A DNA stretch of 64,000 nt from a virus (taxonomy: Duplodnaviria > Heunggongvirae > Uroviricota > Caudoviricetes), in IMG/VR virus record IMGVR_UViG_2654587674_000003; one strand, given 5' to 3'. Made by a program: the position numbers and the translations under genes. Under the pieces are notes generated by a model. The model did not search any database and was not told the DNA's origin. It saw only the letters and a list, made by a program, of their open reading frames with translations. Positions 3,806 to 64,000 of the stretch are shown piece after piece (within the stretch, counting starts at the first letter, position 1; each line of letters begins with the position of its first letter).

Positions 3806-4144
3806 ATGAAACAGGCAACCAGAAAACCGACGACCGTAGGTGATATCCTGCTGTACGAATACCTGGAGCCGTTAGAGCTGAAGATCAACGAGTTAGCAGA
3901 AATACTTCATGTTCATCGTAACACCGTAAGCGCTCTTGTTAATAACAATCGTAAGCTAACGATGGATATGGCATATCGCCTGGCAAAAGCATTCGATACT
4001 TCTGTAGATTTTTGGATTAATCTTCAGACCGCAGTAGATCTGTGGGAAGTCGAAAATGATATGCGCGTCCAGGAAGAGTTAAGTCGTATCAATACTGCTG
4101 AAAAATTTATTTCTCAGCGGAACCTGAATAAAAAAGCAGCCTGA
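3806..4144 (+). CDS. higA: HigA-family antitoxin (XRE-type HTH)
   Basis: 112-aa ORF with HTH LAEILHVHRNTVSALVNNNRKLTMDMAYRLAKAF; immediately downstream of higB. Confidence 0.7.
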   Translation: MKQATRKPTTVGDILLYEYLEPLELKINELAEILHVHRNTVSALVNNNRKLTMDMAYRLAKAFDTSVDFWINLQTAVDLWEVENDMRVQEELSRINTAEKFISQRNLNKKAA

Positions 4145-6378: not shown

Positions 6379-6700
6379 TTTCTATCTCCGGTTCCGCGCT
6401 TGCGTAATCACGGATCTTGTTCCTCAGCCATGCCACATCAGGAAGAGTTAACGTGGTCCCTGCGGGCATTTCTTCAATTTCTGACTCATGGCCCACCAGC
6501 ACCCGGAATACCCAGCGCAAATCTGCATTGCCATACGCCCTGTAGGCTGCAAGGTCTGAACGATATACTTCATCAATCTTTATCGTGTACTGGAAATTAT
6601 CAGAGTGATACTCCGATACCCGCTTAATCATTTCCTGGTGAAACAGCGCACGAAAAATATCGTCTTCAATGTACCTATCGTCGAGTCTGCTATAGCCCAT
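6371..6700 (-). CDS. hypothetical protein, translationally coupled to the SWIM protein
   Basis: 109-aa ORF overlapping the start of the downstream gene by 8 nt. Confidence 0.4.
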   Translation of the reverse strand: MGYSRLDDRYIEDDIFRALFHQEMIKRVSEYHSDNFQYTIKIDEVYRSDLAAYRAYGNADLRWVFRVLVGHESEIEEMPAGTTLTLPDVAWLRNKIRDYASAEPEIENA

Positions 6701-51991: not shown

Positions 51992-52003
51992 TTAACAAGG
52001 CGA

Positions 52004-53002
52004 TTACCCCCTTCTGGAAACGAAGAGTAACGGGGTAGTGTTTTTGTTCTCCTTCGGTGATAACTCTGGTTCTTTCTTGCCTGATACCGGTAAGCCATAA
52101 GTAGCATTTGCCCCAAGAGATTCAAGCATCGCAGCCACTATGCGGGCATCATCTTCAGACTGCATACGGCAGAGCGCCCGGCGCTGTTCTGCGCTGATAA
52201 AAACAGGCATTTCCTGGATAGCTTCACGCAAAATCCGGCGGCATTGCTTTGCATTTTCCCCCTGGCTTTCCATCATCGCTGTTTGAGCGCGCAGCTTATC
52301 TCGAAGCTGTATGTTTTCCACTTCAAGGAGCATCAATTCTGATTCCAGGGCTTCACGATGTGCAGATTCGAGCATGGCTTGCTGATTTTTCATTGCTGAA
52401 AAGTGGTGAACCAGATCCGTAGCAGCGTTATCGGTAAAACCTTGTTCGATAAGTGCTGCATGAATAGCCGCATCGCGCTCTTCTGCTGATTCAAGCATCA
52501 GGCTTTTCTTGTCGAGGCTGATATAGTTAGGCACAGTTACGTAATCAAAGCCGTGGAAAGACTTTACCAGGGATACCGATGAATCTGGACCAGATGTAGC
52601 CCACGACCAACCACCAGCACCAGAATTAATCATGCCCTGAACAATACGCCCGGTGTCTGTATCCAGTATTTCCTGCGTATGAGTAACAATGCCGTTGTCG
52701 TCAATCGAAATGTCGATAGTCCTGTTTGACGGCACGTTCTCCAATACAACAGGCTTCCCATCTACCATCACAACAGAGACTTCCGGCAAGTTCAGGCTTT
52801 TCGTTTTGTTATAGTGCATCGCCCGGCGACCATGACCGTAATAACCATACATCTCACCCAGCGCGATACGCTCTTTTGTTTCTGGCGAGTTGAATGTGTC
52901 TCGTACCGACTGAATGACGTAATTTCGGTTGTTCTGCGGTGTGTGTTTGCGGATTTTCTCTACCAGGGAGAAGCGATCCGTAACAGTATTCAGTGATTGC
53001 AT
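52004..53002 (-). CDS. head morphogenesis protein (possible prohead protease/scaffold)
   Basis: 332 aa with C-terminal coiled coil; position only. Confidence 0.3.
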   Translation of the reverse strand: MQSLNTVTDRFSLVEKIRKHTPQNNRNYVIQSVRDTFNSPETKERIALGEMYGYYGHGRRAMHYNKTKSLNLPEVSVVMVDGKPVVLENVPSNRTIDISIDDNGIVTHTQEILDTDTGRIVQGMINSGAGGWSWATSGPDSSVSLVKSFHGFDYVTVPNYISLDKKSLMLESAEERDAAIHAALIEQGFTDNAATDLVHHFSAMKNQQAMLESAHREALESELMLLEVENIQLRDKLRAQTAMMESQGENAKQCRRILREAIQEMPVFISAEQRRALCRMQSEDDARIVAAMLESLGANATYGLPVSGKKEPELSPKENKNTTPLLFVSRRG

Positions 53003-53015
53003 TATTTCCCTCCGG

Positions 53016-54698
53016 TTAATTGCTCATCACAAATTTTGCAAAGTTTATTAACTGTTCTGGCGTCCAGTTTTCCGGATCGTCACCGGACGACAACGGCGCG
53101 GATTCGTACATACCATGCTCGTTGTTTTGCTCTGATTCATTCGCCTTAAACTCTTTGATCATGGTGTTGAGAGTGTCATCGTCGATGTGCAACTGCTCAG
53201 TGAACAGATAACGCATAAACGCGTCGCTACCAGCCAGTTTCGGGTTGTTCTGGATCTGGTCCATAATTTGGGAGATGACAGCAACAAAGTTGGCGCGAGC
53301 ATCCAGTTCTCGGTTTTCCTCTTCCTGGATAGCAGTGTTCATTGAGTTGAATTGCACGTCATAAGGGCGGTTTGTTTCGGTGTAAACCTTGCCGTATTTA
53401 TAAGCGAGGTGAATGTCCAGAAGCCGATAAATAGTTCGCTGGGCGGCCTGTCTGATCCAGTTCGCACGCAATGCAGCCTGGATAGCAGTTTGCTGCCAGC
53501 CGCCTTCTCCAAGCCCTCCGCTCATCTGATCAGCCCAGCCAAGCATTGTTGCGTCAATGCCGAGGCTTGCAGCAAGCTGCCGGAGGTGAAACATAACGTC
53601 TTCAATACCACTGATATCTGCGGGTATGGATTGCGTATCAATGGTGATGCCGTTCTTCCCGTCTCCCATAACAGGTATCAGATGGTTAAGCACAGTCGGA
53701 ATAGCGTTGGCATTAATCGACCTTTGCGCCACCAGGTCACTATGACGCTTCAATGCCTGGCTGACGCCACGCGTATAGTTCGCCGCATTAACCGGGTCCA
53801 GTGTGTTCGTCGTAAGAGCAATCAGGCGGTCAATTTTGGCTGCATTATTTCGCGTTGATTTCAGCGCGGCGAGCGAAGCACATAAATTAAGGTAAGGTTC
53901 ATAGCTGTATTCCAGGAATGAAGTTCCGTAATTCTGCGTCTCCATTAACGGCTTATCAGCCTGATCACTTAACAGTGAGTACCCTTTTGTGCCGTAGCTA
54001 ACCGGAATAACTTTATGCTGTGGCGTCCAATAGGGATTTTTCATGGAAACCAGATTCCACGGTTCGGTTATTACTCTGCGCAAACTATGCGTATCCAGAA
54101 TGTAATCACCACTGAAACCTACCAGCTGGCTACCACGATAAAACTCCTGGACGAAGTGTGGCAGAGTGTAATAACTGGACTCAATGCCTGTTATCCCCCT
54201 GCCCTGTTCAGCATAAGGTCGGACATAAGACACCCCAAAGATCGCCATAATCATGGCCCATGAAGGAAGTCCGTCATTAATCATCGCCCCCAAATCAGCG
54301 GTTAACTCTTCACATCTACTTACCGCCTCGGCATCGGAACCATCCTTTGGCGAAAGGATGAATGCTTGTCCGGTTTTTTTTGAAGGCGCAAGCGCATGTG
54401 CAATGTGAATATTTAAAGCCGTCGAGATAGTCGGGCTTTTAGCCATCGTTTCCAGGATGTTGTACTTTTGCAGGCGCTCGCCGGGCAGTTCAGCGGATAA
54501 AGAAATTGAATCTGCTTCACTCGTCATGCCATCGCTATTGCTCCCCAGGATGCCTGGACGTAAAGCAGACAGGCCGGAACGAGCAACGACACTATGTCCG
54601 CTCGTAAAAACGACCGGATCGGCGGGCGTAACATCACCACCGTTGAAGGCTTTCTTCAATGCTGACAGAAAGCCTTTGTTTTTGTCTTTCGTTGCCAT
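53016..54698 (-). CDS. head morphogenesis protein (possible portal)
   Basis: 560 aa, size and position only. Confidence 0.3.
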   Translation of the reverse strand: MATKDKNKGFLSALKKAFNGGDVTPADPVVFTSGHSVVARSGLSALRPGILGSNSDGMTSEADSISLSAELPGERLQKYNILETMAKSPTISTALNIHIAHALAPSKKTGQAFILSPKDGSDAEAVSRCEELTADLGAMINDGLPSWAMIMAIFGVSYVRPYAEQGRGITGIESSYYTLPHFVQEFYRGSQLVGFSGDYILDTHSLRRVITEPWNLVSMKNPYWTPQHKVIPVSYGTKGYSLLSDQADKPLMETQNYGTSFLEYSYEPYLNLCASLAALKSTRNNAAKIDRLIALTTNTLDPVNAANYTRGVSQALKRHSDLVAQRSINANAIPTVLNHLIPVMGDGKNGITIDTQSIPADISGIEDVMFHLRQLAASLGIDATMLGWADQMSGGLGEGGWQQTAIQAALRANWIRQAAQRTIYRLLDIHLAYKYGKVYTETNRPYDVQFNSMNTAIQEEENRELDARANFVAVISQIMDQIQNNPKLAGSDAFMRYLFTEQLHIDDDTLNTMIKEFKANESEQNNEHGMYESAPLSSGDDPENWTPEQLINFAKFVMSN

Positions 54699-54762
54699 GA
54701 ATCACCGCAAATTGTTTCCAGTTTTGCGGCAGCATAATCAGTATGTGATTTCAGCGGTTGGT

Positions 54763-56160
54763 TTAGTTTTCCGTACGGCAATTATTTAGATCTGTAGAAT
54801 TTTCAAACATAGCAAAGTTCAGACCTTTCCCTTCGCCAAATTCACCCTCAATTTCATCAGATACAGCAGACAAAATACGACGCAGATCAACATCGCCACC
54901 GCCGAACATATCGCCCAATGCCTGTTGTTTATGAGTCAGCTCGTCGTTGATTTTTTGCGCCATTTTTTTGAATGCTGCCCCCATACGCTTCGCACTGCGA
55001 TTATTTGCTACGATGAATAACGCCAATGCCTCAGCTTCCGGTGTACTGTCGCCGAATAACCCCCTTTGGGCGATCACTTCTTCAACGGCCTGACCGTTGT
55101 CTTTGGCTTCACGTACAAGATTAATTGCTTCCTGGAGTGCTGCTATCGCCTGTGTATCCAGGCCATTAACCTGCTCTATACCGTCCACTAAGCCTGTTAC
55201 TGCGTCATGGTGAGCGTCGCCAGACAGCGACTGCATTTGCGCAAAATCGCTGGCTGCCGTATTTAATGCGGTCAGGATATTACGCATTTCCGGATCTGGC
55301 TCTTCCGACACCAGCCGAACAAGCCTTTCATCCTTGTACGCTTTGGCAAAAATTGCATTCTGGATGCGATCGATAAGCTGTTTCGTGGGACGCCCATCGG
55401 CAGTAAGCAAGCCTGCTGTCGCTGTATCGCCAATTTCGCGCAAAAACGCACGAATAAACGCATCATTGGACCGCGCCAGCAGATTTCCATCATCTGAAGG
55501 ATTAAATAGCGCCATGACGCTCTCAGTGAGAAATTGCGCATCCGCATACGCTTTTTCACTTGCTGCCATCTCTTGCAGATCGCTAATGTTTGAATCGCGG
55601 GCAAATTGAGCGCGGTCTACATCTGTGAGTCTTTCTCGCACCAGTACGGGCATAGACATTTGCGAAATTTCGTCAGGATTCAGACCAAACTCTTTCGCAT
55701 GGTCGATCAGGTACTGGCGATACTCATCCGCCTGTCCTTGCTCATAGGCACGCCAGATACCCATACTCCTTCCGTTGCCGGATTCAACAACGTTGTCCGG
55801 ACCAACTATCGGCGCTCCGTGGCTGCTCATACCGGAATCCGTTAATTGTGCCGGGCGTAAATTGGAGGCAATACGGTTAACCTGGAGTTTGCTGGATAAC
55901 CGGGTACGATCTCGTGGTTGGAGTTCTTCCGGGAAGGCCGGGTTAATCGTACCGTCAAGGTTGTTCGAAATGATCAGACTGCTGGCATCAACGACCTTAA
56001 AAGCCGTCTTTACCTCTGCACCTTTGCTGGTGACTACGTAGCTACTTCGCCCCAGGCGTGTTTCTTTCCTCTCTAATGAAGAAACCAGAGCAATGACGCT
56101 GTTAATATCTGTGGCCCCGGAAAGCGCAGAAGTAACTGATTTGTTCAAAATACACTCCAA
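54763..56160 (-). CDS. head-associated protein (possible DdrB-like)
   Basis: 465 aa in DarA-operon-like block; positional. Confidence 0.3.
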   Translation of the reverse strand: MECILNKSVTSALSGATDINSVIALVSSLERKETRLGRSSYVVTSKGAEVKTAFKVVDASSLIISNNLDGTINPAFPEELQPRDRTRLSSKLQVNRIASNLRPAQLTDSGMSSHGAPIVGPDNVVESGNGRSMGIWRAYEQGQADEYRQYLIDHAKEFGLNPDEISQMSMPVLVRERLTDVDRAQFARDSNISDLQEMAASEKAYADAQFLTESVMALFNPSDDGNLLARSNDAFIRAFLREIGDTATAGLLTADGRPTKQLIDRIQNAIFAKAYKDERLVRLVSEEPDPEMRNILTALNTAASDFAQMQSLSGDAHHDAVTGLVDGIEQVNGLDTQAIAALQEAINLVREAKDNGQAVEEVIAQRGLFGDSTPEAEALALFIVANNRSAKRMGAAFKKMAQKINDELTHKQQALGDMFGGGDVDLRRILSAVSDEIEGEFGEGKGLNFAMFENSTDLNNCRTEN

Positions 56161-56242
56161 CTATAGAGAAAGCTGTGAGTGTAAAAAGTGTGTGATTTAT
56201 GTGAGAACAGATAAGTGAAAGGGGCATTTCAGCCCCTTTTGA

Positions 56243-56611
56243 TTACCCGGCATAACCGTTAGCTTTCACCCAGCTTATGGTCTGCTCTTTAGCCTGCTCC
56301 AACGTAAGGAACTCGCCAACATAGTTTGAGATCCCACGCAGCGCATCAATAAATTCCATTTGTGTGGACTTTGTGAAGACACCGCCCAGGAAGTCAGTCA
56401 CTATCTTAGGGACTTCATCTACAACAGGATCAGTCTGTTGTTGCGGTTCCGCTGCCGGTTGCGCGGCAGTCCCCAGGCCCAATTTCAGCATCACATCAAC
56501 AATCTGCTTACCAATGGTGACGCGTTGCAATACTGGCGCAGTTTTCTGCGCCTGCATTAGATCTGATAGCTCTTTACCTAATTTCAGGCGGTCTAAAACA
56601 GAGATGGTCAT
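56243..56611 (-). CDS. small head-associated protein (possible DdrA-like)
   Basis: 122 aa; stop/start overlap with upstream gene. Confidence 0.3.
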   Translation of the reverse strand: MTISVLDRLKLGKELSDLMQAQKTAPVLQRVTIGKQIVDVMLKLGLGTAAQPAAEPQQQTDPVVDEVPKIVTDFLGGVFTKSTQMEFIDALRGISNYVGEFLTLEQAKEQTISWVKANGYAG

Positions 56612-58542
56612 TAAGCACCTCCCTGCTGAATTTCAGCCAGAATGTTGATCAGGTAGTCAACTGCTGCACCAACAGTGGCTTCGTTCTCGTCGTATCGACC
56701 TGCGCTGATTAGAGCGTTTGCTGCTTCCTGCACATGATCAAGTTCAGCACTGATGACCGTCAGATCGCGGGATGTAAACTGCTCCGGCACGGATTTCAGG
56801 TACTCCAGTGCTTTATCTGCCTCCTGATCAGCTTCACTTGCTGATTCACCAGCTTCTTCTGGCTCCGGCTCCTGTTCTGGTGCTGGTTGTGGTTGTGATT
56901 CCGGCTCAACCACATGCTCTGTTTTTACTTCGCTTGAATGATTTTGAAGGGCGTTATACACGTCCATAATGAAAAGGTTCTCCCCATCACCAAGTGGATA
57001 CGCCACGTTTGGAAACGCTTTGCGGAAAAGAATTTTCACTTGCGCCTTGAATGTTTTCAGGTCACTGCCAAACAGGTCTACATAGCCATCAATATGTTTC
57101 GACATGCTGGACACAACCAATTGGCCTGCAAAATCTTTCAGCTCATCTTCATCAGGAAGATAGAGCAACTCGTACTGGCTGACTTCTTCATCTGTCAGTT
57201 TACGGTCATACGTAATGATACCGTGACGAGCATATTCGTAATACTGATCAGCCTGGTCAGGACGATCAAGCACGGCTTTATTTCCATCCGGCACAGCACC
57301 AACACCAGCCGGGCGAGATTGAAGTGCATAGTGGTATTTACCTACATCCTGGCTCTCTGGTTGTGATACTGGGTTCGTCTCGGGGTCTGTCTGTGGTGGT
57401 TCGGGGTCTTCCTGCTGGCCTGGTAACACATCAACTTTATATTTATCTGCGTTATGCTCTCGGTAGGCTTTAAGTAATTTGGTTGCAGCATCTGCCAAAC
57501 TGCCTCCTTTGACAGCACTGGCATCAATACTGAATTTACCTTCAGGTGCTACTATCGTAACGAAATTGTCACTGCCGGACGTGATATAATTAACTTCAGC
57601 GCCATTATCCAGCACTGTTTTTCCGTCAATGGCAAGATTATGTTTTACATGTCGCAGCTGGTCACTAAACGCTCGTTCCTTCGTTTTTTCACCTTTAGCA
57701 GACAACAATTTATCGCGTTTTTCTTGTAATTCCTCGTTGATGGCTTTCTGGGCATCAAGTTTTTTTTGCATCTCCGTAAGAGCAGCACGCTTTTCAGTCA
57801 GCCCACGTTGCGCAACGTCCACCTGATCAATCATTATTGACCGTTCTTCTGCCAGTTTATCTGCTTCATTGAGATAACTCTCAATATCTGCCTTCATTTT
57901 GTCCTGGCGCTCTTTTGCTTTCTTAAATTTTTCGCTGTTACGCTCAATCAAATTAGATAGCGCCTGGCATACCTGGCTTAAAGAAACATCTCTCCCACCA
58001 ATCGGGGCGACAACGTGAGTTACGTTACGCTTATTAAGTAAAAACTGAAATGCAACAAGCTCGTCGTTACTCTTTATTTTTGCACCGTCAGCTGTTGGAG
58101 AGTGGAAAATTATGCTTGTACTCTGCCCGTCAGTAAGCGGTATCTGCGCGGTCAAAACAGGGATATTAGCTACCCGACGTACACGACCGATAATCGCACC
58201 TCCAATACAATTACGTCCATTTTCATCGGTCCCAGCTTCATCAGTCCCTGCCATAATATTCGTACCATTCAGGCCACGATTCAGCGCACGGACGAAAGCT
58301 CGCATTGTTTGAGCTAACCGAATTCTGGTTGTAGTTATGGACTCAAACATAGCTTCGTCAGACACAACCAGAATTTTATTGCCCATATAGGCAAGCTCAA
58401 TATCTTCTAAGGTCGCCGCCTCAAAAATCAGGTCATCTTCGCTTAATTCTTCTGAAGACCAGCGACTTGGCATATAGCCGGGGATCGTATCAGCAAAAGT
58501 AGACTGAATATTAATTCGTAAAGGATTGTTAATCATGCTCAT
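56611..58542 (-). CDS. DarA-like capsid-internal antirestriction protein
   Basis: about 640 aa (track ORF starts 58575); acidic Pro/Glu-rich region; preceded by a smaller ORF sharing a segment with it, as Hdf does with DarA in P1. Confidence 0.4.
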   Translation of the reverse strand: MSMINNPLRINIQSTFADTIPGYMPSRWSSEELSEDDLIFEAATLEDIELAYMGNKILVVSDEAMFESITTTRIRLAQTMRAFVRALNRGLNGTNIMAGTDEAGTDENGRNCIGGAIIGRVRRVANIPVLTAQIPLTDGQSTSIIFHSPTADGAKIKSNDELVAFQFLLNKRNVTHVVAPIGGRDVSLSQVCQALSNLIERNSEKFKKAKERQDKMKADIESYLNEADKLAEERSIMIDQVDVAQRGLTEKRAALTEMQKKLDAQKAINEELQEKRDKLLSAKGEKTKERAFSDQLRHVKHNLAIDGKTVLDNGAEVNYITSGSDNFVTIVAPEGKFSIDASAVKGGSLADAATKLLKAYREHNADKYKVDVLPGQQEDPEPPQTDPETNPVSQPESQDVGKYHYALQSRPAGVGAVPDGNKAVLDRPDQADQYYEYARHGIITYDRKLTDEEVSQYELLYLPDEDELKDFAGQLVVSSMSKHIDGYVDLFGSDLKTFKAQVKILFRKAFPNVAYPLGDGENLFIMDVYNALQNHSSEVKTEHVVEPESQPQPAPEQEPEPEEAGESASEADQEADKALEYLKSVPEQFTSRDLTVISAELDHVQEAANALISAGRYDENEATVGAAVDYLINILAEIQQGGA

Positions 58543-59149
58543 CCTCCAGGCGCGCGATTTCTTCTTTAAGAGCACGTGTCTTAGCTACTTCCTGAGACAA
58601 GGCAGCTTTAACGTTACCCGTATCTTGTATTACTTTGTCTGACTTGCTCTGGAGTTTAGACAGTTTGTCGTTAGCATTAGCGATATCTTCACGGAGTGCA
58701 TCACGTGATTCTTTCGCTTCAGCTAATTTCTGAGCGTTAGATTTAACTCCCTGCCGCTTCTTATTTCCGTCATCAATATTTTTTGCTGCACGAGCAAGTT
58801 TTCGAGCTAATGACTTCTGGAAAGAAGTTGCTCCGCGATTAAATAAAGCCGCAAGAGATTGCCCCAAAGCCGACATTGTTTTTACTGGCTTGAACGGTAC
58901 TGTTTTACCATTCAGTTTGATCCCAGATATATCACCGGTATCGTTAACCTGAACTTCCATTGTCTGTTCATCAATACCAATAAGGGTAAACGTGCGCGTC
59001 ATGATCCCATCTTTCTTCCTGCCATTACTTGCAGGGATCACCCTCGCTATCTTGTAACCACCTTTGCTGATTTCTTTGACGAGTTTTGCCAGCCCCTTTT
59101 CGTTTAACTCATCATAATTAAGAAGAACATAATTATTCTTATTTGACAT
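58529..59149 (-). CDS. Hdf-like protein (homolog of DarA fragment)
   Basis: 206 aa; TMSALGQSLAAL and following coiled coil resemble SLSQVCQALSNL region of the DarA-like ORF. Confidence 0.4.
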   Translation of the reverse strand: MSNKNNYVLLNYDELNEKGLAKLVKEISKGGYKIARVIPASNGRKKDGIMTRTFTLIGIDEQTMEVQVNDTGDISGIKLNGKTVPFKPVKTMSALGQSLAALFNRGATSFQKSLARKLARAAKNIDDGNKKRQGVKSNAQKLAEAKESRDALREDIANANDKLSKLQSKSDKVIQDTGNVKAALSQEVAKTRALKEEIARLEDEHD

Positions 59150-59585
59150 CCCAGTCTCCTTTACGCTTTTCGATCGTAAACTGGCGCTCTATGCAGTCAT
59201 TGATAGGGAAAATGCGATAAAGCGGATTCAGTCGGCAGTTACCGTTAGTCAATGTGACTTTCAGATCCCACTTCGTTGGCTCAAGATATTTCGTATCGAT
59301 GAGCAAATACTCTTCTCTCTCACCGCGTTTTGAGGCGTCAACTGGTCGCGTTTTCCCTGAAATAACCACAGATGGATTTTTCAGGTCTTGCAACCAATAT
59401 TCGATTTGAGCATTGCTGACCCAGCTTCGCTTAACACGTAGCGAAACAGGAAATGCTATAGCGGATTCTTTCACTACAGCGTCACCAATACTCAAAATCT
59501 CAACACTCTTGCGACGAAAAATGAAACGGTCAATGATGGCAACAAATGCCATGATAAAAATGAAATAATTTCCAAAGTTACCCAT
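59139..59585 (-). CDS. membrane-anchored protein
   Basis: 148 aa, N-terminal TM YFIFIMAFVAIIDRFIF. Confidence 0.35.
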   Translation of the reverse strand: MGNFGNYFIFIMAFVAIIDRFIFRRKSVEILSIGDAVVKESAIAFPVSLRVKRSWVSNAQIEYWLQDLKNPSVVISGKTRPVDASKRGEREEYLLIDTKYLEPTKWDLKVTLTNGNCRLNPLYRIFPINDCIERQFTIEKRKGDWDVK

Positions 59586-59911
59586 TATTTCTCTCCACCT
59601 TTTCCCCCATTCGCTATTACGCTTAAGAGATTCAAGACGTTACTAGCTCTGGACTTCAAGCCCTGTAAAATTTCACTACCGTTGTTACTGGCAATCAGAA
59701 CAACGCAGAAAATGATACCTTCAGGCCATTCTCGGCTAACCGCCACCCCATACCCCGCAAGCCCGGCTGTTACCGCAGTAAACAATTCACTCGCAAGATT
59801 GAGCAGGGACGCAGAAATGCGCCCGTCTCTAACTCCGAGAAGGAATACGCCGGTTCCACTTAGTAGGGATGTTATGACTACTACAGCCAGATTTTCATAA
59901 TCTGCAAACAT
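59585..59911 (-). CDS. holin-like small membrane protein
   Basis: 108 aa with three hydrophobic segments. Confidence 0.35.
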   Translation of the reverse strand: MFADYENLAVVVITSLLSGTGVFLLGVRDGRISASLLNLASELFTAVTAGLAGYGVAVSREWPEGIIFCVVLIASNNGSEILQGLKSRASNVLNLLSVIANGGKGGEK

Positions 59912-60004
59912 ACCCCTCCAGAAATAACATCTAATGCGCCACTAACTTAGTCAGTTTGTTATTTCCTTACAGGACATCTTCTAGGATCGTATCCTTAGCA
60001 TACA

Positions 60005-60157
60005 AGGGAGACATATGCTTATTGGATACATTCGCATATCAACAAATGATGATGCGCCGCGCGATAAATGCACTCTATCTTGTGCGATAAATGGCATCCA
60101 CGCGGCGTTTCATTATTTGAAAAAGAATTACATTTCAGGTTGCGTTATGACAGTCCC
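60005..60157 (+). pseudogene. 5' fragment of a second Din-family invertase gene, fused to unrelated sequence
   Basis: aagggag RBS then ATG; MLIGYIRISTND matches the start of the intact invertase (MLIGYIRVSTNDQ), then homology ends. Confidence 0.3.
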
Positions 60158-60700
60158 AACAGGGTGATAGCGGTAGATCGTTGACAGTCCAATATCATAG
60201 ATAATTGCCAGCCGCTTTCTGTCATACCCTTTCTGGAGCAATCTTGCGATCTGCTCATGCTGCTCCTTCGTCAGTTTCGGGCGACGTCCTCCAACTCTTC
60301 CTTGTGCTCGCGCAGCAGCCAGTCCTGCCAGCGTGCGCTCAACTATCAGTTCACGCTCCATTTCTGCCAGTGCACCCATCATATGAAAAAAGAACCTTCC
60401 CATCGGAGTGCTGGTATCGATTGAATCCGTCAGACTGCGAAAATTGACACCTTTTGCGCGTAACTCTTCTGTGAGAGCAATGAGGTGTTTCATTCTTCTA
60501 CCCAACCGATCCAGCTTCCAGACCACCAATGTATCCCCTCTTTTAAGGCACTTTAAAGCGCGTTTCAGGCCTGGTCGTTCCGACTTGGTTCCGCTCATTT
60601 TGTCCTCAAAAATCTGTTCACATCCTGCGCACATTAATGCATTGCGTTGCAAATCTGTGTTTTGGTCATTTGTTGACACACGTATGTAGCCAATCAGCAT
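60128..60700 (-). CDS. Din-family serine DNA invertase (Gin/Cin/Pin/Hin-like)
   Basis: 190 aa from ATG at 60700 (track ORF has a spurious 43-aa extension); MLIGYIRVSTNDQNTDLQRNAL...GDTLVVWKLDRLGR...GRFFFHMMGALAEMERELIVERT near-identical in pattern to Gin as recalled. Confidence 0.85.
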   Translation of the reverse strand: MLIGYIRVSTNDQNTDLQRNALMCAGCEQIFEDKMSGTKSERPGLKRALKCLKRGDTLVVWKLDRLGRRMKHLIALTEELRAKGVNFRSLTDSIDTSTPMGRFFFHMMGALAEMERELIVERTLAGLAAARAQGRVGGRRPKLTKEQHEQIARLLQKGYDRKRLAIIYDIGLSTIYRYHPVGTVITQPEM

Positions 60701-60754
60701 TAAAAATACTCCCTTTTGAGTGGTTAAAGTACTGAGATAATGTGGGGAGGATTT

Positions 60755-60780
60755 GAGAGATAAACGTTGGTTTGGGGGAA
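60755..60780 (+). other. invertase crossover site A (gix/cix-like)
   Basis: gagagataaacg-tt-ggtttgggggaa; right half-site matches gix GGTTTTGGATAA at 9/12. Confidence 0.45.
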
Positions 60781-61233
60781 GGCTCGGCGCTGCCCGTTGG
60801 TGTACCTGTTCCGTGGCCCACTGCCACACCGCCAGCAGGCTGGTTAAAGTGCGACGGGCGCACCTTTACAAAAGAACAATATCCTGTTCTGGCCAGAGTC
60901 TACCCGACCCTCCGTCTTCCCGATTTACGCGGTGAATTTATTCGTGGCTGGGATGACGGACGTGGTGTGGATGCCGGGCGACAATTATTATCTTCACAGG
61001 GGGATGCAATAAGAAATATTGAGGGATTCGCAGATGGCGGGATCGGTATGTCTTTTGATGCAATCAGAGGGGCTTTTTACGATGCAGGAACACGATCAGC
61101 GAGAATGCCGAATAACACAACTACTATAGACAAAACCGATGACCTTGGATTCGACGCCTCTCGTGTCGTGCCAACAGCTAATGAAAACCGTCCTCGTAAT
61201 ATTGCCTTTAATTATATCGTAAGGGCGGCATAA
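60772..61233 (+). CDS. tail-fibre C-terminal cassette A (startless, inverted)
   Basis: reading frame opens right after a stop; encodes LGEGSALPVGVPVPWPTATPPAGWLKCDGR...RPRNIAFNYIVRAA, same ends as the expressed fibre tip. Confidence 0.55.
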   Translation: MGEGSALPVGVPVPWPTATPPAGWLKCDGRTFTKEQYPVLARVYPTLRLPDLRGEFIRGWDDGRGVDAGRQLLSSQGDAIRNIEGFADGGIGMSFDAIRGAFYDAGTRSARMPNNTTTIDKTDDLGFDASRVVPTANENRPRNIAFNYIVRAA

Positions 61234-61255
61234 AAACGTTGGTTTGGGGGAAGGC
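61232..61255 (+). other. invertase crossover site B
   Basis: taaaaacg-tt-ggtttgggggaa. Confidence 0.4.
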
Positions 61256-61717
61256 TCTGCATTGCCTGTTGGTGTACCGGTTCCATGGCCCACCGCCACA
61301 CCGCCAGCAGGCTGGTTACAGTGCAACGGAGCTACGTTCACCAAAGAACAATATCCTGTTCTGGCCAGAGTCTACCCGACCCTCCGTCTTCCCGATTTAC
61401 GCGGTGAGTTTATCCGTGGATGGGACGACGGGCGCAAGATTGACGAGGGGCGTAAGTTGCTTTCATGGCAGAAAGGTACACTGGTCGGCGGTCATGACGA
61501 TAACGATTCTGCGCTTGATATCTCGTACATGAGTAACGGAAATAATATTGACTATGGCGGCGATAAGGTGTTTGCGGGGAATTACCGTAGCGATTATTTG
61601 TGGTACGCAATACTGGGTGGAACAAACAGTCGCGCAAAAGCCGAATTAAACGGAGCATTCTTTAACATAACCCGCCCCCGCAATATCGCGTTTAACTATA
61701 TCGTGAGGGCGGCGTGA
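61244..61717 (+). CDS. tail-fibre C-terminal cassette B (startless, inverted)
   Basis: same conserved N-terminal 70 aa and C-terminal NYIVRAA with different central 70 aa. Confidence 0.55.
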   Translation: MGEGSALPVGVPVPWPTATPPAGWLQCNGATFTKEQYPVLARVYPTLRLPDLRGEFIRGWDDGRKIDEGRKLLSWQKGTLVGGHDDNDSALDISYMSNGNNIDYGGDKVFAGNYRSDYLWYAILGGTNSRAKAELNGAFFNITRPRNIAFNYIVRAA

Positions 61718-61723
61718 TACCGT

Positions 61724-62338
61724 TCAACTGGCAAGTGCCAGTGGCGCTTCCGGCCAGCTGATTTCAGGTGCCGTGCTGATATCCAGTGCGTTCAGCTCGT
61801 CGATATAATCCAGCACGGCGTTCAGTTTTGCCGTTTCTTCTGGTGTCAGACTGCGACCAGCACGCAGTTTGAGGTTGATAAGATCGACGGACGCCATCGC
61901 CTGTTTCACCCGTTGCTGGCGTTGCTGTCTGGCAACCTCCAGTTCTGCGGCTCGCTGCCGTTCAGTATCGGTTACCCACGCCTCACCGTTCCAGGTATCC
62001 CATGGCGTGGCTGGCTGTTTTGTGGTGGTGTCCGCCGGGTAATCACCCGGTTGGGTAATCAGAACAGGGTTACCGTTCTCCGTGCTGTATACCGTCTCGC
62101 CGCGGTGATCAGGCACATGCTCCCACCCGTTCAGCGTGGCAGTCCGGCAAACCACGTAACCCGAAATTGCCTCCGGCGGTGCATCGGCGCACGAATGTGC
62201 CGGAGTACCCACCCCAAGGGCGAGATACTCCACAGAGGATGAGGTGTATTCCCGGGTTTCCTCGTCATAGTGATATACAGTGATATCGCCCGCTACAGTG
62301 GCGATACCGTTTTCATCCAGAACTGCAGTGTTACTCAT
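61724..62338 (-). CDS. tail fibre assembly protein (U/Tfa-like)
   Basis: 204 aa; C-terminal ISTAPEISWPEAPLA resembles the conserved Tfa C-terminus. Confidence 0.6.
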   Translation of the reverse strand: MSNTAVLDENGIATVAGDITVYHYDEETREYTSSSVEYLALGVGTPAHSCADAPPEAISGYVVCRTATLNGWEHVPDHRGETVYSTENGNPVLITQPGDYPADTTTKQPATPWDTWNGEAWVTDTERQRAAELEVARQQRQQRVKQAMASVDLINLKLRAGRSLTPEETAKLNAVLDYIDELNALDISTAPEISWPEAPLALAS

Positions 62339-62856
62339 TAAACTGCCCTCACAATGTAATTAAGTGCAATGCTACGGGGTCTGACAGTGATACCCTTCGC
62401 ATACCCGCTTCTGATAGAGGTCAGAATAGTAGCCTGCATACCATTGTCTGACATTGCTATGACAGGATCGCTGAATGTTGTCCCGTCCGGCATTTTAAAG
62501 CTGCCCTCACGAAGGTCTGTAATGGAATCTTCATTGTTGAATCCCATGCCGACTATCCCCGAGGTTCCCGTAGTGTCCTGGTTATAATAATCCAGCATTG
62601 CTGTTCTTAACAGCGTTGCCCCTTGTGCGGACAGCAACTTACGTCCTGTATCAACTTTGCGCCCGTCGTCCCATCCACGGATAAACTCACCGCGTAAATC
62701 GGGAAGACGGAGGGTCGGGTAGACTCTGGCCAGAACAGGATATTGTTCTTTTGTAAAGGCGCGCCCGTCGCACTTTAACCAGCCTGCTGGCGGTGTGGCG
62801 GTGGGCCACGGAACAGGCACACCAACGGGTAGCGCCGAGCCTTCTCCTAAACCAAC
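62338..62856 (-). CDS. tail-fibre C-terminal cassette C (startless, same orientation as fibre)
   Basis: frame opens immediately after the fibre stop; NVGLGEGSALPVGVPVPWPT...NYIVRAV. Confidence 0.55.
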   Translation of the reverse strand, partial: VGLGEGSALPVGVPVPWPTATPPAGWLKCDGRAFTKEQYPVLARVYPTLRLPDLRGEFIRGWDDGRKVDTGRKLLSAQGATLLRTAMLDYYNQDTTGTSGIVGMGFNNEDSITDLREGSFKMPDGTTFSDPVIAMSDNGMQATILTSIRSGYAKGITVRPRSIALNYIVRAV

Positions 62857-62862
62857 GTTTCT
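62838..62862 (-). other. invertase crossover site C
   Basis: minus-strand aaacg-tt-ggtttaggagaa. Confidence 0.4.
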
Positions 62863-64000
62863 ATGCCGCCCTTACGATGTAATTAAACGCAATGTTACGG
62901 GGACGAATGGTCACATAATTAACCCCATCGCCTCGCGAAGGACCTGCAAATGAAAAACGGGAAAAGCCTGGTTGGTTAGAAACAATTTGGTCATAGTTAT
63001 TGATTGAATGACCAGACCCAATGTCGAAATTACCTCCGTAATGAGAAAAACTTGTACCATCCTGCCCTGAAAGCAGATCGCGCCCTGTATCCACTTTTCG
63101 CCCGTCGTCCCATCCACGGATAAACTCACCGCGTAAATCGGGAAGACGGAGGGTCGGGTAGACTCTGGCCAGAACAGGATATTGTTCTTTTGTAAAGGCG
63201 CGCCCGTCGCACTTTAACCAGCCTGCTGGCGGTGTGGCAGTGGGCCACGGAACAGGTACACCAACGGGCAGCGCCGAGCCTTCCCCCAAACCAAGGTAAT
63301 TGAGGACATCTTTTATACTGCCCTTAGCGATAATAGCGCGACCAATAGCTGTAAGGGTTGTCAGCGCTGCGCGGTCTGCTCCGGTAAAATAAGGCAACCG
63401 ATCTGCTGCAGTGGCAAGTCCTGCCAGAGCAGTGAGCGTGGCATCTTCCGGTTGTTTTCCGTTTGCCAGATCGTATGCAGCCTTGACAGCTTTCGGTGTA
63501 GCGGCCAGCACTTCAGACGTGCTGTTAGTGGCACTACTGAGCTGAGTGATGCCTTTCGCTGTCAATGAAGCTGTTGGCACACCAGTGATCTGATTCCAGG
63601 GATGTATATGATTGGATGGTGCCTTTCCGGCTGCTAGATCGTATGCAGCTTTAACCGCTTTTGGAGTTGCAGCTAATGTTTCAGAAGTGCTGTTGGTGTC
63701 GCTACTGAGCTGAACTATCCCTTTTTGTGTCGTGGTTGCATCCTGGGCTGTGTACTTCCCGTTAGCCAGGTCATATGCAGCCTTGACAGCTTTCGGTGTA
63801 GCGGCCAGCACTTCAGACGTGCTGTTAGTGGCACTACTGAGCTGAGTGATGCCTTTCGCTGTCAATGAAGCTGTTGGCACACCAGTGATCTGATTCCAGG
63901 GATGTATATGATTGGATGGTGCCTTTCCGGCTGCTAGATCGTATGCAGCTTTAACCGCTTTTGGAGTTGCAGCTAATGTTTCAGAAGTGCTGTTGGTGTC
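62861..64000 (-). CDS. tail fibre protein, 3' portion with expressed cassette D (5' end beyond window)
   Basis: repeated LTAKGITQLSSATNSTSEVLAATPKAVKAAYDLANGK units then cassette D; ORF continues past the window edge. Confidence 0.7.
   Translation of the reverse strand, partial: DTNSTSETLAATPKAVKAAYDLAAGKAPSNHIHPWNQITGVPTASLTAKGITQLSSATNSTSEVLAATPKAVKAAYDLANGKYTAQDATTTQKGIVQLSSDTNSTSETLAATPKAVKAAYDLAAGKAPSNHIHPWNQITGVPTASLTAKGITQLSSATNSTSEVLAATPKAVKAAYDLANGKQPEDATLTALAGLATAADRLPYFTGADRAALTTLTAIGRAIIAKGSIKDVLNYLGLGEGSALPVGVPVPWPTATPPAGWLKCDGRAFTKEQYPVLARVYPTLRLPDLRGEFIRGWDDGRKVDTGRDLLSGQDGTSFSHYGGNFDIGSGHSINNYDQIVSNQPGFSRFSFAGPSRGDGVNYVTIRPRNIAFNYIVRAA
63279..63302 (-). other. invertase crossover site D (junction of constant fibre and cassette D)
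   Basis: minus-strand attacc-tt-ggtttgggggaa. Confidence 0.4.
63481..64000. repeat. tandem 300-bp duplication inside the tail fibre gene
   Basis: 63481..63700 is identical to 63781..64000. Confidence 0.8.

Follow-up and report, generated by a model that had tools for sequence, protein, structure and literature searches.

The window, a 64,000-nt stretch of DNA from an E. coli phage carried on a plasmid, holds a four-tip tail-fibre switch at positions 60050-63306, which is very probably a programmed multiple-inversion device for exchanging the fibre tip. Inversions exactly at the cores of its crossover sites have occurred among natural plasmids. Read from 60128 to 64000, the locus comprises an invertase gene (-), tip cassettes A and B (+), the assembly gene tfa (-), cassettes C and D (-) and the constant part of the fibre gene (-). 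A preliminary description had proposed a layout of four cassettes with an invertase and one assembly gene, and every element was found where that description placed it. The features are:

60015..60049, + strand: cin remnant (MLIGYIRISTND...), the opening 35 nt of a D6/P1-type invertase gene truncated by the module that came in
60050..60127, + strand: right end of a Mu-like transposable prophage, beginning TGATGCGCCGCGCGATAAATGC (Mu right end, TGAAGCGGCGCACGAAAAACGC)
60128..60700, - strand: serine DNA invertase, Gin/Pin-like, 190 aa, assigned by domain, structure and identity matches
60611..60682, - strand: putative enhancer, by homology only, matching P1 cin nt 19-90, with a Fis-like motif GCGCAGGATGTGAAC
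60755..60780, + strand: crossover site s1, GAGAGATAAACG TT GGTTTGGGGGAA, start of cassette A
60772..61233, + strand: cassette A, 153 aa, orphan tip without its own assembly gene; collar domain, E 4e-16
61227..61252, + strand: crossover site s2, GGCATAAAAACG TT GGTTTGGGGGAA; its outer half holds the cassette A stop codon
61244..61717, + strand: cassette B, 157 aa, tail-to-tail with tfa
61724..62338, - strand: tail-fibre assembly gene tfa, 204 aa, sole copy; Caudo_TAP, E 4e-28
62338..62850, - strand: cassette C, 170 aa, its stop codon overlapping the start of tfa
62842..62867, - strand: crossover site s3, GGCATAGAAACG TT GGTTTAGGAGAA; its outer half holds the cassette D stop codon
62861..63289, - strand: cassette D, 142 aa, the tip now expressed, in which the fibre gene ends
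63281..63306, - strand: crossover site s4, TCCTCAATTACC TT GGTTTGGGGGAA, within the fibre gene
63295..64000, - strand: constant part of the fibre gene with Phage_fiber_2 repeats (E 3e-60), running past the end of the window

The invertase is a small serine recombinase with a resolvase domain bearing the active-site serine and a C-terminal HTH. A profile search detects Resolvase (PF00239, E 8e-51) and HTH_7 (PF02796, E 1e-12), the solved Gin structures PDB 4M6F and 3UJ3 are matched at E 1e-93, and the protein shares 73% identity with Mu Gin and 70% with Cin, its YIRVS(9)TNDQ motif aligning with Gin. Its earlier designation as Gin-like is thus upheld, within the Gin/Cin/Pin/Hin group. The gene is taken to start at the ATG at 60700, its product opening with MLIGYIRVS; a GTG-started long ORF reaching 60829 was rejected. 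The exact sequence occurs on at least 1000 public contigs, and the source records call the protein Pin-like. The window's own invertase presumably catalyses the inversions. The P1 record annotates a recombinational enhancer at cin nt 19-90, and the homologous stretch of the window is 75-76% identical to cin and gin, versus 63-73% for nt 91-300; one Fis-like motif is kept in all four invertase genes compared. Enhancer function of this stretch and dependence on Fis are accordingly predictions from sequence. Coding constraint is a possible cause of the conservation of the stretch.

A scan of the 64 kb for the motif AACGTTGGTTTGGGGGAAGG, allowing up to 3 mismatches, gives 4 hits, two on each strand, where 0 are expected (100 shuffles); two sites per orientation, one at each cassette start, had been proposed before. 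All four sites are 26 bp long in a 12-2-12 arrangement, with imperfect inverted 12-bp halves around an identical TT core. The inner half-sites, GGTTTGGGGGAA or GGTTTAGGAGAA, are identical to P1 cix (GGTTTAAGAGAA) at 10-11 of 12 positions, and the degenerate outer halves retain AAAC or TTACC; that of s4 resembles the outer half of P1 cixR, TTATCCAATACC. Site s4 lies 429 nt ahead of the fibre stop codon, and the other three lie at the starts of startless 3′ cassettes. A base-by-base alignment of the four junctions shows conservation of the TT core and of the inner half-site, as anticipated. The core given earlier as AAACG-TT needs correction in part: TT is present throughout, AAACG precedes it in three sites only and is replaced by TTACC in the fibre-gene site, and s3 has GGTTTAGGAGAA. 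Nor is Mu gix their best match: with a TT core the sites are nearer to P1 cix and the e14 sites, the gix core being GA or TC depending on the strand read. The s1 core stands 67 bp from the invertase ATG, and the boundary of the Mu G segment is spaced equally from gin.

In an alignment of the four cassette proteins, the first ~66-70 residues are invariant or almost so, the C-terminus reads RPR(N/S)IA(F/L)NYIVRA(A/V) and the centres are unrelated, in agreement with the shared start of about 70 residues, NYIVRA(A/V) end and differing centres first noticed. At the DNA level, the cassette starts are repeats of 217-276 nt with 84-94% identity, forming 2 direct and 4 inverted pairs, the latter 87-94% complementary; the constant part contains a 245-nt unit recurring at 300-nt spacing. 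The tip architecture fits that of T4 gp37 (PDB 2XGF), with the collar first and the NIAFNYIVR strand last, and the variable centre sits where gp37 has its receptor-binding tip. All four cassettes are intact ORFs, conserved at 96-100% identity across plasmids and chromosomes. At least seven cassette types (A, B, C, D, X1, X2, X3) make up an interchangeable set. Tip cassettes shift as orphan units among Mu-like prophages, P2-like prophages and P1/D6-like phage-plasmids.

The sites bound three segments, D, C-tfa-B′ and A′, and enumeration yields 12 arrangements reachable by inversion alone, among which all four tips appear, as predicted. Every one of the 12 places a forward cassette beside the constant part, and the cassettes share a frame from the site onward, so that each legal inversion gives an in-frame join. 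The preliminary description regarded C and D as the cassettes co-oriented with the assembly gene, which holds for the present isomer and not as a rule, A and D being free segments; B is the only cassette always opposed to tfa. Its question of how the remaining tips are chaperoned can be refined correspondingly: tfa travels with C, and it shares the orientation of the fibre gene in 6 of the 12 arrangements and is opposed to it in the other 6, among them every state that expresses B.

Isomers do occur among deposited records, these being separate assemblies that each give a majority state only, rather than one clonal population. After two in-silico inversions at TT cores, the window differs from pKY1497_2, whose fibre gene is fused to cassette A, by 1 mismatch in 4101 bases (1597 without inversion); p13ZX28-90, after a single inversion, matches p13ZX36-90 without any mismatch in 4000 (885 otherwise). 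What distinguishes these near-identical plasmids is precisely inversion at the predicted cores, and the locus is on record in more than one orientation. Among the loci compared, the cassette set {D, C, X1} is found in three arrangements and {X3, C, B} in two, and C is the fibre-fused tip in 7 of the 17 loci showing both the fibre-gene junction and the window's tfa. In no locus examined is B parted from tfa and C. Where junctions can be resolved, the change of partner lies in the interval from the outer half-site to base +6 of the inner one; flanking differences in L001 narrow the junction of constant part and C to the 7 bases TTGGTTT. Invertases of the Din family characteristically invert DNA between inverted sites and do not delete it between direct ones. 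The number of cassettes ranges from 2 to 4 among relatives, a variation that could stem from rare deletion or homologous exchange.

In the proposed mechanism, a Gin/Pin-type invertase would swap strands at the 2-bp TT core of the four 26-bp sites, probably assisted by host Fis bound to an enhancer in the 5′ end of the invertase gene. Recombination between inverted pairs of sites would flip the intervening DNA and always leave the constant 5′ fibre part in frame with one cassette start. Four fibres are predicted, each joining a common collar domain and C-terminal return strand to a different receptor-binding centre; a lysogen population would therefore release four host specificities, and the four tips are expected to give different host ranges.

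By its sequence, the module, which starts at the fibre-gene site and extends 78 bp past the invertase, appears to be a capture from a Mu-like transposable prophage. Homology to D6 (92%) spans 59912 to 60049, including the start of D6 cin, and backbone relatives with 99.0-99.7% identity cease matching at 60049. Homology to chromosomal prophages begins at the TG of 60050, beside at least 5 different flanks (flgA, a cut ssuB, aroA, a cut yadA-like gene and DUF3999). The first 193 aa of the pKY1497_2 fibre are D6 S-like. A Mu-like prophage appears to have inserted into cin on a D6-like phage-plasmid, and the ancestral two-state Cin switch would then have been replaced, most simply via later deletion between two co-oriented fibre genes. 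This history of transposition plus deletion is what we infer.

The locus joins the known group of p15B Min, e14 Pin and Mu Gin, a kind of device that is common and already understood. With Mu Gin/G and with the Cin/C systems of P1 and D6 it has in common the invertase family, the site layout and the position of the enhancer in the invertase gene, the window's enhancer being putative. The gene order is fibre, invertible DNA and then invertase, in the same direction as in Mu. The two-state architecture of Mu G and P1 C, in which two sites bound one segment and each of two tips has its own assembly gene (S-U, S′-U′), is nevertheless not that of the window, where an invertase of the same family accompanies four sites and three segments carrying four short gp37-like tips and a single tfa; the TT core is that of cix, not the GA of gix. 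The precedent, for a type that the preliminary description already called not new, is the Min system of p15B, reportedly described by Sandmeier, Iida and Arber in 1990 and 1992. Like the window, Min is said to combine a Din-family serine invertase with more than two sites in both orientations and to join a constant 5′ fibre part to alternative 3′ cassettes on a P1-type plasmid prophage. It likewise reportedly replaced an ancestral Cin-type switch, with its invertase opposite to the orientation of cin, and is said to have six sites and tips on a P1/IncY backbone, versus four on a D6-like backbone in the window. The window differs from Min in having one assembly gene inside the invertible DNA and an identifiable donor, a Mu-like transposable prophage whose terminal sequence is kept.

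A homologue verified by PCR is a three-site locus in a P2-like prophage of EPEC E2348/69, for which four coexisting variants were found by sequencing and PCR (Goldberg 2014, PMC4272514). Its architecture is that of the window: constant part, orphan cassette, an invertible unit of cassette, tfa and inverted cassette, and a co-oriented invertase. The two loci share the same TT GGTTTGGGGGAA sites, with 86% identity of the invertase, 60% of Tfa and 96% similarity between the variable part of cassette D and the tip expressed in the prophage. The window has one orphan cassette more (12 states and four tips versus 4 states and three tips) and its setting is a phage-plasmid, that of the EPEC locus a chromosomal prophage. 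The e14 Pin/P segment of E. coli K-12 carries a near-identical site, AAACCTTGGTTTGGGAGAAGG (Table S1 of PMC4272514); unlike the window, it is a defective element with two sites and two stf-tfa pairs. The R64 shufflon (Rci, pilV) follows the same logic, several invertible segments exchanging the C-terminal part of one adhesin gene. It is analogous rather than homologous, Rci being a tyrosine recombinase that acts on 19-bp sfx sites in a conjugative pilus adhesin, and the window, with its serine resolvase/invertase, does not belong to the shufflons.

It is highly improbable that RecA-dependent recombination between the 217-276-nt inverted repeats, not the invertase, rearranged these plasmids. 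The repeats are long and highly complementary, and the 5′ regions of the cassettes bear traces of exchange or conversion: some homogenisation is seen there, A showing a single synonymous difference and L015 having 5′ parts that are mosaic, which indicates that homologous exchange is also at work in the locus. The resolvable junctions, including that of L001, are nonetheless confined to the site, inversions placed at the cores recreate other records with 0-1 mismatch, and the distance from an intact invertase to a site is 67 bp. In addition, all four EPEC variants coexist in single-colony cultures, the large inversion at ~90:10 (PMC4272514), which is faster than expected of RecA on diverged repeats of ~200 bp. 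That the arrangement of the window is an assembly chimaera of mixed isomer reads is hardly credible. Invertible regions with 200-bp repeats are often mis-assembled, and the exact window arrangement is absent among the records fetched for comparison; yet it is one of the 12 legal states, and two inversions lead from it to pKY1497_2, with which it then agrees at 4100 of 4101 bases, whereas a random mis-join would more likely be illegal, for example with a cassette 3′ end on the fibre gene. A mixture of isomers would itself show an active switch.

The single assembly gene invites a further reading, on balance unlikely, in which the switch is only partly functional: C would be properly served by the co-transcribed tfa, and A, B and D would be relics of lost S-U pairs whose expression gives poorly assembled or fibreless, non-infectious particles, an ON/partial-OFF device rather than four host ranges. 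No promoter able to express the inverted tfa was found among sigma-70 and P1-late-type promoters; this also counts against the favoured four-tip reading, under which B fibres, as well as half the states with tip A or D, may be left without a chaperone and be non-functional. The A-type tips of SKA5 and of the plasmids L013 and L014 have their own Tfa directly after them, and a passage in PMC9608196, citing North 2019, reports that the variable N-terminal domain of Tfa binds the fibre. Relics, however, would hardly accord with four intact and conserved cassettes, nor with a core unit (C, tfa and inverted B or X1) that recurs with its single tfa in every locus sampled, or with an exact match of the window's Tfa protein on at least 1000 public contigs. 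The majority EPEC state (~90%) has an inverted tfa, a Min-like array of 6-7 cassettes with the same site and cassette type in a P1-like plasmid has no tfa inside it, and the window Tfa shares 52% identity, along its whole length, with its SKA5 counterpart, which serves an A-type tip. It is conceivable, if somewhat doubtful, that most tips need tfa not in cis or not at all, or that the tfa-antisense states are a deliberate fibreless "off" phase. Short tips may fold without Tfa, or with one generic Tfa made from either orientation. Such a dispensable tfa or off phase would change the rule, derived from Mu and P1, of one co-inverted chaperone per tip.

Under the programmed four-tip switch favoured here, a single assembly gene, inverted in half of the arrangements, would have to serve four tips. 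In annotation, the tail-fibre region of D6/P1-like phage-plasmids is best treated as a single gene that has several alternative 3′ ends, and assemblies that disagree there differ in switch state; such discrepancies are neither strain differences nor errors. D6/P1-like phage-plasmids often carry resistance genes. The locus is also a clean example of a whole host-range module moving across phage types, one that spans the fibre-gene crossover site to the transposable phage end and leaves as its footprint a truncated cin beside a Mu-type end. For elements of this kind, a single assembly may understate the breadth of host range about fourfold.

The window belongs to an E. coli phage-plasmid of D6/P1-like type. 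Its bases 52000-60700 match plasmid pKY1497_2 (NZ_AP019805.1) at 100% identity and about 100 other non-mobilizable plasmids of about 90 kb at 96-99%, and the adjoining genes are D6 homologues of P1 darA, hdf, lydB and lydA. The holin gene is preceded, at 59947 on the minus strand, by a P1-late-promoter-like box, AAGTTAGTG followed by TTAGAT, which corresponds to P1 LPdar. Several sister plasmids carry in their head-gene region a TnpB (IS200/IS605-type) insertion that is missing from the window (e.g. L001, a locus of NZ_CP022228.3, at 1-209); these plasmids match bases 52000-60700 in two pieces, over a span about 1.35 kb longer. The four-cassette inversion locus proposed in the preliminary description is present, and its interpretation as a fibre switch is supported. 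Its components are as follows.

Features of the inversion locus (window coordinates, strand)
60128-60700, minus: serine recombinase (invertase) gene, 190 aa
60772-61233, plus: cassette A
61244-61717, plus: cassette B
61724-62338, minus: assembly gene tfa, 204 aa, Caudo_TAP, with its start overlapping the cassette C stop
62338-62850, minus: cassette C
62861-63289, minus: cassette D, the present end of the fibre gene
From beyond 64000 to 62861, minus: tail-fibre gene

Every cassette start carries one 26-bp crossover site of 12-2-12 form.

Crossover sites (outer half, core, inner half)
s1, at the start of cassette A: GAGAGATAAACG TT GGTTTGGGGGAA
s2, outer half containing the cassette A stop codon: GGCATAAAAACG TT GGTTTGGGGGAA
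s3, outer half containing the cassette D stop codon: GGCATAGAAACG TT GGTTTAGGAGAA
s4, inside the fibre gene: TCCTCAATTACC TT GGTTTGGGGGAA

The site motif occurs four times in the 64 kb, with none expected by chance, and two sites lie on each strand, as had been described. Their earlier designation as gix-like is loosely right; cix/pix-like is more exact, because the inner half is identical to that of P1 cix (GGTTTAAGAGAA) at 10-11 of 12 positions and the TT core is shared with cix and the e14 site, whereas the core of Mu gix is GA. Two otherwise identical plasmids, L001 and L002 (NZ_CP028585.2), differ by 1-2 nt in the G-runs of two sites (L002 positions 5058 and 6656-6660), one change turning GGTTTAGGAGAA into GGTTTGGGGGAA. 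The seeming absence of one site from L002 comes down to a G-run shorter by 1 nt and does not reflect a different architecture. These differences probably reflect either homopolymer sequencing error or localized conversion at crossover sites, a process described for P1 Cin.

The recombinase combines Resolvase and HTH_7 domains, retains the active-site serine, matches solved Gin structures with an E value of 1e-93, and shares 73% identity with Gin and 70% with Cin of P1 and D6. The invertase gene reads in the same direction as the fibre gene and follows the invertible DNA, as in Mu; 67 bp separate its ATG from the closest site core, a spacing equal to that between the Mu G-segment boundary and gin. 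The counterpart of the P1 cin enhancer (annotated at nt 19-90) shares 75-76% identity with cin and gin, compared with 63-73% deeper in the gene, and contains one Fis-like motif common to all four genes compared. This agrees with, without proving, a putative Fis-dependent enhancer within the invertase gene. The exact invertase is found on at least 1000 public contigs. In L016, an IncY P1-like plasmid (NZ_CP124473.1, 2213-3340), the same C-tfa-B module is probably locked in a single state, since IS26 occupies the expected position of the invertase. The chromosomal copy L022 (NZ_CP158426.1, 2529-3100) has a frameshifted invertase and cassettes C and B only, and is possibly a decayed, frozen switch.

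From public records, the switch can be judged to have inverted in nature. Sites, cassettes, tfa and invertase were mapped in 20 related loci sampled for isomers; locus mapping was used rather than junction-specific BLAST because joined nearby pieces would mimic fusions of co-oriented neighbour cassettes. In the window, the constant 5′ part of the fibre gene is joined to D, followed by C and tfa in the same orientation, then by B and A reversed, and then by the invertase. In pKY1497_2 all four cassettes recur, each at 100% identity, but their order is constant part, A, D, C and tfa, all forward, then B reversed and the invertase. Two in-silico inversions at the TT cores convert one order into the other, reducing the mismatches from 1597 to 1 over 4101 bases, and this sole mismatch is a synonymous T/C difference in cassette A. 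Likewise, a single inversion at the cores accounts for the difference between p13ZX28-90 and p13ZX36-90, both reported in one study, and brings the mismatches over 4000 bases from 885 to 0. Among the sampled loci, the cassette set D, C and X1 occurs in three arrangements and the set X3, C and B in two (X1 and X3 being cassette types of relatives). Where flanking differences permit, the exchange point is narrowed to the seven bases TTGGTTT, which argues for site-specific over homologous recombination; minor traces of homologous exchange are also present in the repeats.

The module has a sharp boundary with the phage-plasmid backbone. D6 homology, traced from the holin gene, takes in the initial 35 nt of D6 cin (plus strand) and ends at 60049, where plasmids with a backbone 99.0-99.7% identical to the window also lose their match. 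The sequence from 60050, TGATGCGCCGCGCGATAAATGC..., resembles the Mu right end, TGAAGCGGCGCACGAAAAACGC..., placing a truncated D6-type cin directly against a Mu-type right end (60015-60127). In chromosomal prophages, homology to the window begins exactly at the TG of 60050 and is preceded by at least five different flanks (flgA, a truncated ssuB, aroA, a truncated yadA-like gene and a DUF3999 gene); such a fixed end with differing flanks is characteristic of a transposable phage of the Mu type. These prophages encode an invertase and a Tfa identical to those of the window. Between s4 and the Mu-like end, identity of the plasmid to these prophages is 96-100%, but it is just 70-83% in the fibre shaft, and residues 1-193 of the pKY1497_2 fibre are D6 S-like. 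These sequence comparisons suggest that the entire fibre switch was captured from a transposable, Mu-like prophage inserted in cin. In the simplest history that we infer, a Mu-like phage would have transposed into cin, after which the old C segment and the remainder of the prophage would have been lost by deletion between the two fibre genes, which pointed the same way. This parallels p15B, where Min reportedly replaced a Cin-type system.

The products of the four cassettes vary hardly or not at all over their first 66-70 residues, which constitute a phage tail collar domain; the middle parts are unrelated, and all four products end in RPR(N/S)IA(F/L)NYIVRA(A/V). The T4 gp37 tip (PDB 2XGF) has the same layout, its chain running from the collar to the receptor-binding tip and back to end in NIAFNYIVR, and the conserved cassette ends are therefore structural and not solely recombinational. 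In the fibre shaft (63456-64000 and beyond), a repeat search found a 245-nt unit at 300-nt spacing with copies 98% identical, despite the lack of any report there from Tandem Repeats Finder. Its copy number varies among sister plasmids (L001-L006, L017 and L018), with fibre genes of 1836 to 2787 bp, so that fibre length is variable in addition to the tip.

Switches of this kind include Gin/G of Mu, Cin/C of P1, Pin/P of e14 and the six-site Min of p15B. L024, a P1-like plasmid (NZ_CP142951.1, 3100-7350), carries 6-7 cassettes of the same collar-tip-NYIVRAA type in a Min-like array; the array has no tail-fibre assembly gene inside, and several of its reading frames are interrupted, which may reflect sequencing errors or decay. 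The closest documented case is the three-site P2-like prophage of EPEC E2348/69, for which four coexisting variants were found by sequencing and PCR (PMC4272514). Its architecture is the same, with the constant part joined to a D-like and then an X2-like cassette, followed by tfa and Z in reverse and the invertase. The site is also the same; the invertases are 86% and the Tfa proteins 60% identical, and the D tips 96% similar. The window differs in having one more orphan cassette and in its host element.

Three site-bounded segments, D, C-tfa-B′ and A′ (primes marking reversal), can be rearranged by inversions between oppositely oriented sites into 12 arrangements, all within three steps of the window. 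A cassette start adjoins the constant part in every one; the expressed tip is A or D in four states each and B or C in two each, and C and B always stay linked to tfa. The preliminary description had asked how A- and B-tipped fibres are chaperoned. This question is sharper than posed, as tfa points the same way as the fibre gene in only 6 of the 12 states, namely whenever C is expressed, in half of the states with tip A or D, and never with tip B. A sigma-70 scan near tfa and in C found no promoter, and the sole copy of the P1/D6 late-promoter box AAGTTA(C/G)T is the one in front of the holin gene at 59947; no promoter of either type that could drive tfa by itself was found. A candidate extended -10 element, TGaGATAAT (60733-60741), seen by eye and reading into the cassettes, was discounted for want of conservation in the related EPEC module.

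Some evidence points to Tfa as a generic or dispensable chaperone: the single-tfa core unit is unchanged in every sampled locus, tfa is inverted in the majority state of EPEC E2348/69, the Min-like array of L024 has no tfa inside, and the Tfa encoded behind an A-type tip in phage SKA5 and two sister plasmids (L013 and L014) shares 52% full-length identity with that of the window. Other evidence points to a chaperone specific for its tip: a passage in PMC9608196, citing North 2019, reports that the variable N-terminal domain of Mu Tfa binds its fibre. A search for a cognate chaperone beside B-type tips in simple phages gave as its sole close match another copy of the present module, and Tfa has no relative in the PDB detectable by sequence.

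Among 5426 complete E. coli genomes, 1648 carry some portion of the module, a count that takes in partial matches to the fibre repeats. The switch type is already well known and the window is a further example, unsurprising in itself to specialists. More study is invited only by the precise footprint that capture from a transposable phage left behind and by the presence of just one tfa, which is often inverted.
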